Of a stretch of DNA of 64,000 nt, positions 6,781 to 22,717 are shown piece by piece. The notes beneath the pieces are model-generated. The model was given only the letters and a program-made list of their open reading frames with translations, was not told the DNA's origin and did no database searches. The first letter of the stretch is position 1; each line of letters starts with the position of its first letter. The position numbers and the translations under genes were made by a program. This DNA comes from a virus. The DNA is taken from the IMG/VR virus record IMGVR_UViG_3300036820_000013, positions 1 to 64,000 of that record, one strand, 5' to 3'.

Positions 6781-6835
6781 AAAGATCTGGGAGGTGACTC
6801 TTGGCTTTCCCACTCGCCCTGATATATAATTAATT
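6781..6835 (+). promoter_or_regulatory. Promoter P3
   Basis: AGATCT 6783, CTTGGC 6800, TATAAT 6825. Confidence 0.85.
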
Positions 6836-6944
6836 AATGGAGGAGAGCAGCTATGGACGTTGAAACCCAGGCCGGAGATTGGTCCCCCCACCGCTCCGGC
6901 CTGGTTTTGAGCGCCCAAGCTCAAGCAAAGAAACGGAGCACACA

Positions 6945-10087: not shown

Positions 10088-10097
10088 GGAGAACCTC

Positions 10098-10203
10098 CCC
10101 TGAACGTCCTATCCAGGACGGGCAGCCCTGGCCTCACCTCAACGTGAAAGCGGGTTGTGCCCCCGCTCGGGCAGGTAACGGACTGGATAGGGCCTTGAGG
10201 GCA
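10098..10203 (+). repeat. Covarying RNA stem motif, copy 1
   Basis: CCCTGAACGTCCT-ATC-CAG ... CTG-GAT-AGGGCCTTGAGGGCA. Confidence 0.75.
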
Positions 10204-10229: not shown

Positions 10230-10400
10230 ATGTTGGGTCCACTGATTACCGCGCTTGAGAACCGTGCGAAGGCTCTTGAGGCGGAGGCTGTGAAGCTCGC
10301 TCAGGAAGGTGAGGCCGAAGCGGCCGCGCTCAAGACCGCGCTGGCCAACGAACTCAGGAACATCGTCGCCGAGATCGAGAGCGTCCTCGCGGACCTCTAG
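10230..10400 (+). CDS. 56-aa coiled-coil protein (not in ORF track)
   Basis: AAAGGA SD; MLGPLITALENRAKALE... Confidence 0.75.
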   Translation: MLGPLITALENRAKALEAEAVKLAQEGEAEAAALKTALANELRNIVAEIESVLADL

Positions 10401-10417: not shown

Positions 10418-10549
10418 ATGAACACCGGCATATATGTAGGCGTAATCTCTAACCCGGAAGACGCCCGTCGGCCGCTGGATGTATATCTTACGGCCGGCGG
10501 CCGCACGATCATCTGGGATTCGGGTATGCGCTTCGGTTGGACCCGCTAG
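10418..10549 (+). CDS. 43-aa protein (not in ORF track)
   Basis: GGGAGG SD; MNTGIYVGV... Confidence 0.6.
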   Translation: MNTGIYVGVISNPEDARRPLDVYLTAGGRTIIWDSGMRFGWTR

Positions 10550-10555
10550 CCCCTA

Positions 10556-10641
10556 CCCTGAACGTCCTGCTCAGGACCAGGACGCCCTACCTTGTTCCGT
10601 CTCTTCTCGGTAGGATCATCCTGAGCAGGGCCTTGATGGCA
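10556..10641 (+). repeat. Covarying RNA stem motif, copy 2
   Basis: CCCTGAACGTCCT-GCT-CAG ... CTG-AGC-AGGGCCTTGATGGCA. Confidence 0.75.
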
Positions 10642-12669: not shown

Positions 12670-13191
12670 ATGACGCGCAAGAACCAGTCAGCAGAAGAGA
12701 ACACGGAGGCAGCGGTGGAAGAGAAGACCACAGAAGCGGCGACCGAAGAGGCTGCGACGGAGGAAGAGAAGAAGGCGCCGAAGAAGCGCAAGCACGCTCT
12801 GCCTGAGGGCTGGATCACCCCTGTCGCGTTCCGGCACGCCCTGGTCGAGCGCGAGCTCGCCGGCGACAACCTCAGCTCCGCCCAGATCTACATCCTGTCC
12901 CGCAAGGCCGCCTCGAACGGCATGCCAGTCAAGCACTTCAACGCGGCCGGTGAGCAGTTCGACGACCTCCAGGTTCACCCTATCACTGGCGAGACGCTCA
13001 CGCGGCCCGGCCTCAAGCTCGATGAGGGGCTCGACTGGTGGCAGAACCGGCCGAAGCGTCAGCCTGGCCAGAAGAAGGAGAAGGCCGAGAAGGCAGAAGG
13101 CACTGCAGAGGCCGAGGCCGAGAACCTCGAGGACGCCGCCGCAGGAGAGAGCCTCGAGGACGAACTCGAGCAGTTTGTAGAGGCCGAGTAG
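12670..13191 (+). CDS. Acidic-tailed protein, paralog of 2600..3130
   Basis: Shared core and termini. Confidence 0.8.
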   Translation: MTRKNQSAEENTEAAVEEKTTEAATEEAATEEEKKAPKKRKHALPEGWITPVAFRHALVERELAGDNLSSAQIYILSRKAASNGMPVKHFNAAGEQFDDLQVHPITGETLTRPGLKLDEGLDWWQNRPKRQPGQKKEKAEKAEGTAEAEAENLEDAAAGESLEDELEQFVEAE

Positions 13192-13194
13192 GTC

Positions 13195-13625
13195 CTCCGA
13201 TGGTACGTCCGGTGAGGCAAGCTCACCTCCGAGCGTCCTTGAGCAAGACGCGAAGCTGGTCGGCTCCGTTGGGTACGACGGAGCCGGCCGGGCCGGCATC
13301 AGTTTGTTCAGGGGCGGGTGAGGATCGGACTAGCTCCGGTCTGGCGCCGAATAGGCATATAGGGCGGGTTCGAGGCCCGCGCCGCCCACGAAGCTGTATG
13401 TGGGTGCAGCCACAGACAGCCTGCGCTAGCCCGGTAGCGTGTATCCGCCTAAGCGGACAAGGGGCTCAGCCTCCCGGGACCTCAAACTCGGGCGCCCAGC
13501 AGCGTAAGGCGGAGCAGCTGGGCGCTCGTTCAAACCTGGGGCACCCGTTGTGGGCGGTTGATCGCGCCGCTACTACGGTTGCAGGTCCTGTCCCACTGCT
13601 GGGCGCAGCGGGTGTCCCAGGCCGA
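13195..13625 (+). ncRNA. Highly structured non-coding region (candidate ncRNA or ncRNAs)
   Basis: About 10 consecutive stems, including a 17-bp stem 13535-13551/13605-13621 with G-U pairs; no convincing CDS. Confidence 0.6.
13312..13388 (+). ncRNA. tRNA-like element lacking a D-arm
   Basis: GGGCGG/CCGCCC acceptor; T-arm GCGGG-TTCGAGG-CCCGC; central stem with loop ACTAGCT; variable-arm hairpin. Confidence 0.5.
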
Positions 13626-13654
13626 ATTGGGCCATTACTAATGGAGGGTTGACC

Positions 13655-14029
13655 ATGGCTGACATTGTCGATGCGAGGCTTTACGAGCAGTGCACGAAAG
13701 TCTATGACGCGATGATGAAGAACAGTCAGCCAACCGGAGACCTCTCTAGCCGAGCCTACAGAGGGTACACGACATACCTTCTCGAGCAGGCCGGCTACAG
13801 CTTGTCAAACTACACGCCTATCATGCGCAGGTTGCGGGCGATGGGCTGCATTACACAGCGGGTGCGCGGGGGCCGCGGTACGCCAAGCGAATGGCTACTG
13901 CACAAGCCTCCGACCCGAGCTGCGTTCGCTCGGGGCGGACAGCGTTGGGTAGCCCAGAACGAGCGCATCAACGATCTAGAGGAGCGGGTCTCCGCTCTGG
14001 AAGCCCAGATGGAAGAGCAGGCGAGTTAA
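13655..14029 (+). CDS. Winged-helix-like DNA-binding protein
   Basis: IMRRLRAMGCI...RGGRGTPSEW wing; coiled-coil tail. Confidence 0.65.
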   Translation: MADIVDARLYEQCTKVYDAMMKNSQPTGDLSSRAYRGYTTYLLEQAGYSLSNYTPIMRRLRAMGCITQRVRGGRGTPSEWLLHKPPTRAAFARGGQRWVAQNERINDLEERVSALEAQMEEQAS

Positions 14030-22662: not shown

Positions 22663-22717
22663 AGAAATCCAAGGTCAAAACGCTTGCGTTCCTGAGCGCC
22701 TCCGCTATATAATTAAG
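22663..22717 (+). promoter_or_regulatory. Promoter P6
   Basis: AAATCC 22665, CTTGCG 22683, TATAAT 22708. Confidence 0.8.

Follow-up and report, generated by a model that had tools for sequence, protein, structure and literature searches.

The gap between two genes at positions 13192-13654 (+ strand) of a siphovirus-type genome holds a real, non-coding and strongly folded RNA, which is built of conserved hairpins and a tRNA-shaped element. The genome is a 79,080-bp IMG/VR virus record, and the window, that is, the whole stretch of DNA analyzed here, comprises its first 64 kb (64,000 nucleotides). Comparison of related sequences indicates that the tRNA-shaped element and a long hairpin, hairpin H, are under clear selection for shape. 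Our main reading, to which we assign a probability of about 50%, is that the 463-nt gap (hereafter the spacer) is an intercistronic, cis-acting processing/stability spacer transcribed from the promoter-like site P4, combining a tRNA mimic of RNase P/Z type with a hairpin of RNase III type. As far as the sequences tell, its most likely function would be ordinary in kind, namely mRNA processing and stability. The finding itself is a previously undescribed set of phage RNA modules: an anticodon-less tRNA mimic, a long irregular hairpin and an invariant-loop hairpin are each supported by covariation, match no described family and recur across a clade of uncultured soil phages. To our knowledge, the RNA biology of early genes in actinophages has hardly been studied.

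Setting, folding and conservation of the spacer

Genes of this genome include those for a family-A DNA polymerase, a helicase and a tape measure protein of 1782 aa. The spacer is preceded by a gene for a 173-aa protein (12670-13191, + strand) with an acidic/KAEK tail and without family match, homologues of which are also found upstream of the spacer in the related loci L012, L013 and L014. The gene that follows it (13655-14029, + strand) encodes a 124-aa protein of winged-helix type, and its ATG at 13655 is preceded by the Shine-Dalgarno sequence GGAGGG (13644-13649, + strand). In the MFE structure this Shine-Dalgarno sequence pairs with CCUCC at 13194-13198, a pairing seen only in this phage. 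The winged helix and the long C-terminal helix are predicted by AlphaFold2 (pLDDT 87); the 124-aa protein belongs to no Pfam or PHROG family and gave weak fold matches to PadR/MarR regulators and RepA_N-type plasmid initiators (E 2e-3 to 3e-2).

P4 (12553-12597, + strand) lies about 600 nt upstream of the spacer and is a clear member of an early family of promoter-like sites sharing TTCCCAG...(C)TGG...TATAATTAA, other copies of which were observed at 1335-1365, 2522-2552, 6806-6836 and possibly 22702-22716. A consensus scan of the + strand revealed nothing resembling a promoter or a terminator inside 13192-13654, and hence no discrete sRNA gene is evident. According to the main reading, P4 would transcribe the 173-aa gene, the spacer and the winged-helix gene together.

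On the + strand the spacer folds with an MFE of -251.4 kcal/mol (z -5.74), which none of 100 shuffles equalled, while the fold of the - strand is weaker (-215.8 kcal/mol, z -3.96); such an advantage of the + strand is as expected from G-U pairs in an RNA of that strand. Eleven of 12 control windows of equal length fell between z +0.9 and -2.2. The GC content of the spacer is 66%, and it has no AT-rich unwinding stretch. Another stretch, 2000-2462 in the early region, was found to be as structured as the spacer (z = -6.8, 30 shuffles) and includes a 14-15-bp hairpin at 2193-2228.

A frame free of stop codons runs from 13038 to 13652, but a coding reading of this frame, and of its equivalents in the relatives, was rejected on the basis of the substitution pattern. 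Compared with three relatives of approximately 80% identity, substitutions in the spacer are spread evenly over the codon positions (35/37/40), and synonymous and nonsynonymous codon differences occur at 15:55, versus 28:9 in the neighbouring gene with its third-position excess. Moreover, the translations are rich in Arg, Pro and Gly and not conserved as protein. A long stop-free + frame crosses the spacer in every relative and ends at the start of the next gene (L006:1549-2208, L009:2321-3001, L011:2282-3001, L012:2276-2983 and L007:395-1168).

Searches with Rfam 15 (4227 models, including tmRNA, RNase P, Y RNA, GOLLD, ROOL and riboswitches) gave no match at the gathering cut-offs in the window and 10 related loci, and, with the threshold relaxed to E up to 10, added only matches at chance level and, in L012, one tRNA below threshold. 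Neither a tRNA nor a tmRNA was called by ARAGORN in the window, and blastn with distant settings against GenBank phages gave no match. A search of genome contigs with the 124-aa protein found no relative, and so offered no clue to a prophage or a host.

The downstream protein has 26 relatives, and eleven related loci came from scans of viral and metagenome collections. In all eleven, the same two genes flank an ORF-poor spacer of 192 to 1026 nt. The primary sequence of the spacer is barely alignable, even at 70% identity of the flanking protein, and the alignable parts are discrete blocks, the order of which varies among phages: with TLS denoting the tRNA-shaped element, the order is A-B-TLS-D-H in this phage and TLS-B-A-D-H in L009. 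Because the block order differs between phages, the spacer is best described as a mosaic of independent modules rather than one integrated fold. The more distant L013 and L014 manage with a 192-nt spacer containing neither the tRNA mimic nor hairpin H, which counts against the processing reading.

The tRNA-shaped element

The tRNA-shaped element (13312-13389, + strand) consists of an acceptor stem of 6 bp plus one mismatch and a T-arm, GCGGG-UUCGAGG-CCCGC, and ends in A73 followed by C. In a strict scan for an acceptor stem combined with a T-arm it was the only match in the 64 kb, and the matches in the relatives all lie within the same spacer. Of the features that define tRNAs, the acceptor stem and the T-arm with its UUCRA loop are thus present, while a D-arm, a 7-nt anticodon loop and CCA are lacking; nor was there a match to RF00005 at E up to 10, either in the whole record or in 12900-13900.

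Besides this phage, L005, L006, L007, L009, L011 and L012 carry tRNA-shaped elements in the same spacer, and both the acceptor and the T-stems of these elements show compensatory changes. The element at L012:2478-2558 is homologous to 13312-13389, with 90% identity over the T-arm and acceptor stem and a compensatory change in the acceptor stem. In the six mimic copies compared, G1-C72, G2-C71, the UUCGA loop and a 3' CCAC are invariant and A73 is kept, and the anticodon loop is unusable in every copy. Four of the six have G-U at position 3:70; this phage has G3-C70. A G3-U70 pair is the identity pair for alanine, and the acceptor/T-arm half is the part of a tRNA recognized by RNase P, RNase Z and the CCA-adding enzyme.

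L012, a relative at greater distance, has two tRNA-shaped elements, one at each end of its 498-nt spacer. The first, L012:2478-2558, is called by ARAGORN as 'tRNA-Stop, anticodon UUA'; the second, L012:2898-2966, has G3-U70 and a 3-nt 'anticodon' loop and reaches 24.7 bits with RF00005, below the cut-off of 29 bits. We also observed one and the same T-arm, GGGCGGGTTCGAnnCCCGCGCC, in five otherwise unrelated IMG/VR contigs (L021:4896-4917, L022:4026-4047, L023:2735-2756, L025:1031-1052 and L026:459-480). There, it belongs to minimal acceptor-plus-T-arm elements of 55-70 nt, which ARAGORN does not call as tRNAs and which may represent a wider class of phage tRNA mimics.

A precedent from actinobacteria is YrlA of Mycobacterium smegmatis, in which a 7-bp acceptor-like stem and a T-arm mimic are cut by RNase P and receive CCA (PMC4201824). 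Both RNAs combine an acceptor-type stem with a T-arm carrying a UUCGA loop, have no decoding capacity and occur in an actinobacterial setting; in contrast to the element described here, the tRNA-like domain of the Y RNA is permuted and accompanied by a Ro60-binding stem and an adjacent rsr gene (PMC4201824). This phage has no TROVE gene (PF05731 is absent from the 79-kb record) and no match to a Y-RNA family at E up to 10, and a YrlA-type Y RNA was rejected for want of a Ro60/TROVE gene in the record. An attP core copying the 3' end of a tRNA was likewise rejected as unlikely: no integrase match (PF00589 or PF00239) was found in the record, which is 85% complete, and a matching 5' acceptor strand, for which an attP site has no need, is present.

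The tRNA-shaped pieces could alternatively be pseudogenes in a decaying tRNA island, with the hairpins as terminators or neutral GC-rich spacer. The absence of working anticodon loops, the wide range of spacer lengths, the two odd 'tRNAs' called by ARAGORN in the spacers of relatives and the presence of a true tRNA-Met near the similar element in L023 would all suit such decay. Set against this are the compensatory changes by which acceptor stems, T-stems and hairpin H are preserved across lineages whose spacers can barely be aligned, as well as the conservation of loops, and we regard decay as quite unlikely.

A stand-alone non-coding RNA, or a set of processed RNAs, in which the tRNA mimic acts in trans, is a possibility that we consider unlikely. 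The mimic could then be a decoy or sponge that engages tRNA-directed host enzymes or defence nucleases, be aminoacylatable or CCA-tagged, or form part of a Y-RNA- or GOLLD/ROOL-like particle. The retained G1-C72, G2-C71 and A73, the frequent G3-U70 and the unusable anticodon arm are consistent with such a role, as are the similar minimal elements in the five unrelated contigs and the conserved loop and bulge motifs of the hairpins described below, which point to a partner; the G3-C70 pair in this phage's own mimic argues against it. A trans-acting mimic would represent a type of phage tRNA decoy not seen before. That the modules constitute a new class of modular phage ncRNA, an anticodon-less mimic of alanine type plus fixed-motif hairpins, released by RNase P/Z and directed in trans at the host tRNA machinery or tRNA-targeting defences, appears unlikely.

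For a large RNA particle, the obvious comparison is with GOLLD and ROOL, large ornate phage RNAs encoded close to phage tRNA islands, in which the 3' part is conserved and the 5' part varies (10.1101/2024.12.08.627333). The spacer resembles them in being phage-borne, hundreds of nucleotides long, associated with a tRNA-like element and composed of a conserved 3' and a variable 5' part. It differs in that no Rfam match was found at any threshold, the relatives included, in that its modules are shuffled, which makes a single ornate fold unlikely, and in that no long-range or pseudoknot architecture is conserved; the missing Ro60/TROVE gene weighs against a Y-RNA-like particle. In the distant L003, the downstream protein of which is 40% identical, an unrelated stretch with just as much structure (L003:3431-3961, z -5.8) occupies the same place; terminator-like hairpins flank it, and after it comes a sigma-70 promoter close to consensus (TTGATA-17-TATAGAAT). 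No primary-sequence homology was detected between the spacer and this structured gap, and L003 thus serves as an analogy only; by that analogy, its layout looks more like a free-standing RNA or 3' UTR, which would favour a stand-alone RNA over a processing spacer.

Hairpins of the spacer and the processing reading

Hairpin H (13535-13621, + strand) is supported by a covariance model and by covariation. Its outer helix P1 pairs 13535-13547 with 13609-13621 and P2 pairs 13550-13554 with 13592-13596, the two being separated by a G-rich 3' bulge (13597-13608); the inner part includes GGUUGAUCGCG...GGUCCUG and a conserved GGUCGAUCGCG/CUGAUCCUG core. Across seven phages P1 measures 13-17 bp, P2 5-8 bp and the 3' bulge 9-16 nt, so that H is a stacked helix of approximately 20-25 bp interrupted by an asymmetric G-rich 3' bulge. 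The covariance model (R1) found one H per phage, on the + strand only (62-105 bits versus at most 20 on the - strand), and in all seven phages it lies directly upstream of the same downstream gene. Paired states account for 91.6% of the cells, and double changes occur in 16 of 32 pairs, values reached by none of 500 shuffles; slid controls gave 40-50% pairing. The relatives showed no conserved pseudoknot partner for the bulge. H could in addition be an RNA or DNA operator of the winged-helix protein.

With about two helix turns and an asymmetric internal loop, both kept by covariation, H has a geometry of RNase III type. In the early region of T7, the RNase III processing hairpins R0.3-R1.3 lie between cistrons of the early polycistronic transcript. 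H resembles these in its intercistronic position in a putative early polycistronic transcript, in its two stacked helices split by an asymmetric internal loop, in the placement of one element directly before a cistron and in stems that covary around conserved loop residues. Unlike them, H is longer and has an extra inner domain with the GGUCGAUCGCG/CUGAUCCUG core.

Smaller hairpins accompany H. Hairpin D (13489-13528, + strand) has a 14-bp stem and is homologous to the hairpin preceding H in L006, L009 and L011. Hairpin B (13256-13291, + strand) has a perfect 14-bp stem and an 8-nt loop, and its counterparts in relatives are GGCUCCG...CGGAGCC hairpins with differing apical pairs; B might also act as a factor-independent terminator, and co-transcription would then be interrupted. 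Hairpin A (13233-13251, + strand) carries a conserved 9-nt loop, CUUGAGCAA, on a covarying 5-bp stem. This loop (CUUGAGYAA) is kept in six phages (this one, L005, L006, L008, L009 and L011) on stems as different as GCGUC/GACGC, GCGCC/GGCGC, GGACC/GGUCC and GGACU/GGUCC. Near the 5' end of the spacer, an ACGUCC motif with a 6-bp hairpin (GGUGAG/CUCACC; 13205-13227, + strand) is 84% identical to L008:299-348 and is of the same kind as the AACGUCC-hairpins at 10100 and 10558 and in the spacers of relatives; four AACGUCC-hairpins follow one another in tandem in the spacer of L009.

Two copies of a CCUNCCCUGAACGUCCU... element were observed upstream, at 10094-10119 and 10552-10577 (extending to ~10210 and ~10650). 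They have covarying long-range stems, UAUCCAG/CUGGAUA versus UGCUCAGGA/UCCUGAGCA, each followed by GGGCCUUGA, and bracket two small unlisted ORFs, 10230-10400 (56 aa) and 10419-10549. The region 13205-13251 (ACGUCC, hairpin and CCUUGAG) resembles a third copy.

In the processing reading, host RNases would cut the polycistronic early transcript at the tRNA mimic and at hairpin H. The cuts would separate the two cistrons and leave hairpin-protected ends, which in turn would set their stability and translation. The structure of the + strand, the non-coding substitution pattern and the position of P4 upstream of a spacer with neither internal promoter nor terminator all favour this reading, as do the single-copy H with the same gene downstream in seven phages and its heavy covariation, the mimics with compensatory stems and unusable anticodon arms, and the conserved loop of hairpin A on its covarying stem; the M. 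smegmatis YrlA mimic, cut by RNase P and provided with CCA, is an actinobacterial precedent (PMC4201824). Against it, the single-stranded motifs, i.e., the CUUGAGYAA loop and the G-rich bulge, suggest a specific partner, for which simple processing has no need. If the modules are processing signals, tRNA-style punctuation and cuts of RNase III type would organize operons of actinobacterial phages.

Complementarity to early loops and the repeated 9-mer

A first-pass annotation of this DNA had proposed that the spacer is an sRNA or switch, expressed from P4, whose CUGGGCG anti-loops kiss the YGYCCAG loops of five early hairpins and thereby coordinate early mRNA leaders. All sequence facts behind this proposal are present. 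The 9-mer GCTGGGCGC occurs at 13517-13525 and 13598-13606 (+ strand) and, inverted, at 13492-13500; all 11 nt of 13492-13502 are complementary to 13596-13606. Five real hairpins, at ~458, 1271, 3154, 4832 and 6139, carry apical loops complementary to CUGGGCG (13518-13524 as copy 1 and 13599-13605 as copy 2). A structured + strand RNA about 600 nt downstream of P4 was also borne out; the trans-acting kissing sRNA and the switch were not.

The complementarity amounts to anti-loop/loop duplexes of 8 bp with -14 to -18 kcal/mol. Its accessibility differs between the two copies. In hairpin D, copy 1 pairs in cis with CGCCCAG (13493-13499), its unpaired probability is 0 and opening it would cost 15 kcal/mol. 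Copy 2 lies in the conserved, partly open 3' bulge of H, with unpaired probabilities of 0.06-0.75 and an opening cost of 3.3 kcal/mol. A duplex at -17 kcal/mol or better is found in just 3% of random 463-nt stretches of this genome, which speaks for kissing. Statistically the short motif is weaker than the fold, and the margin over chance is less clear: 3% to 11% of such stretches can form an equally good duplex with a loop. Window-wide, YGYCCAG is not enriched (47 found versus 46.8 expected), and GCTGGGCGC was found four times versus 1.57 expected, a count reached by nine of 100 shuffles.

The early regions of five related records were available for comparison of the loops. Among these, G001 and G002 have four to five hairpins with CGCCCAG/CCCAG loops (UCGCCCAGC, ACGCCCAG or similar), but their homologous spacers contain no [CU]UGGG[CU]G, and the H bulge there reads GUGGCGG. 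Loops without an anti-loop in relatives had been named beforehand as the result that would refute the proposal, which G001 and G002 thus partly refute. The best duplexes between loops and spacer in these two genomes, -7 to -12 kcal/mol, are no better than the genomic background (mean -12.1). L005 and L008 keep CUGGGCG/CUGGGUG at the copy 2 position in the 3' bulge of H, which counts in favour of kissing.

Mutually exclusive folds, the basis of the switch, fared no better: the alternative fold has -238.2 kcal/mol versus -251.4 kcal/mol for the MFE, that is, 13.2 kcal/mol worse, and the 11-nt pairing has no counterpart in any of six relatives. An RNA switch was thus rejected, the alternative pairing being neither conserved nor close in energy, and so was a trans-acting kissing sRNA, its anti-loop not being conserved together with the target loops and the consensus scan having given no promoter or terminator of its own. 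The comparative evidence, then, does not support a kissing mechanism, which we consider highly improbable, while the structured-RNA part of the proposal stands; an attractive regulatory model has been removed by a comparative test. Phage RNAs of kissing or antisense type exist, the C4 RNA of P1/P7 being an example. Here as in C4, short complementarity links a structured RNA to leader elements of other phage transcripts; in contrast to C4, relatives do not retain the complementarity along with the targets, a stem sequesters one copy and there is no evidence of a discrete RNA.

The repeats might instead act at the DNA level, as operators or iterons for the winged-helix protein or as part of an RNA-primed origin heading the replication module. 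Three copies of the 9-mer within 115 bp, upstream of a winged-helix gene with weak RepA_N-like fold matches and with a helicase gene 1.9 kb downstream, are in keeping with such a role, and cluster A mycobacteriophages have origins based on a non-coding RNA of 400-500 nt (PMC7157519). However, the repeated 9-mer is confined to this phage, and no H-bearing relative has direct repeats of at least 8 nt in its homologous stretch, on which ground the iteron/operator reading of the repeats was rejected. The G-U pairs and the strand asymmetry indicate RNA rather than duplex DNA, and 66% GC without an AT-rich unwinding stretch is at odds with an origin; a DNA-level or replication element is thus very unlikely. 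No complementary partner was found for the G-rich motif shared by the 3' strand of D and the 3' bulge of H. The two copies of this motif are alike within a phage and unlike between phages, with GCUGGGCGC occurring twice here (13517-13525 and 13598-13606) and UGGCGG twice in L006 and L009.
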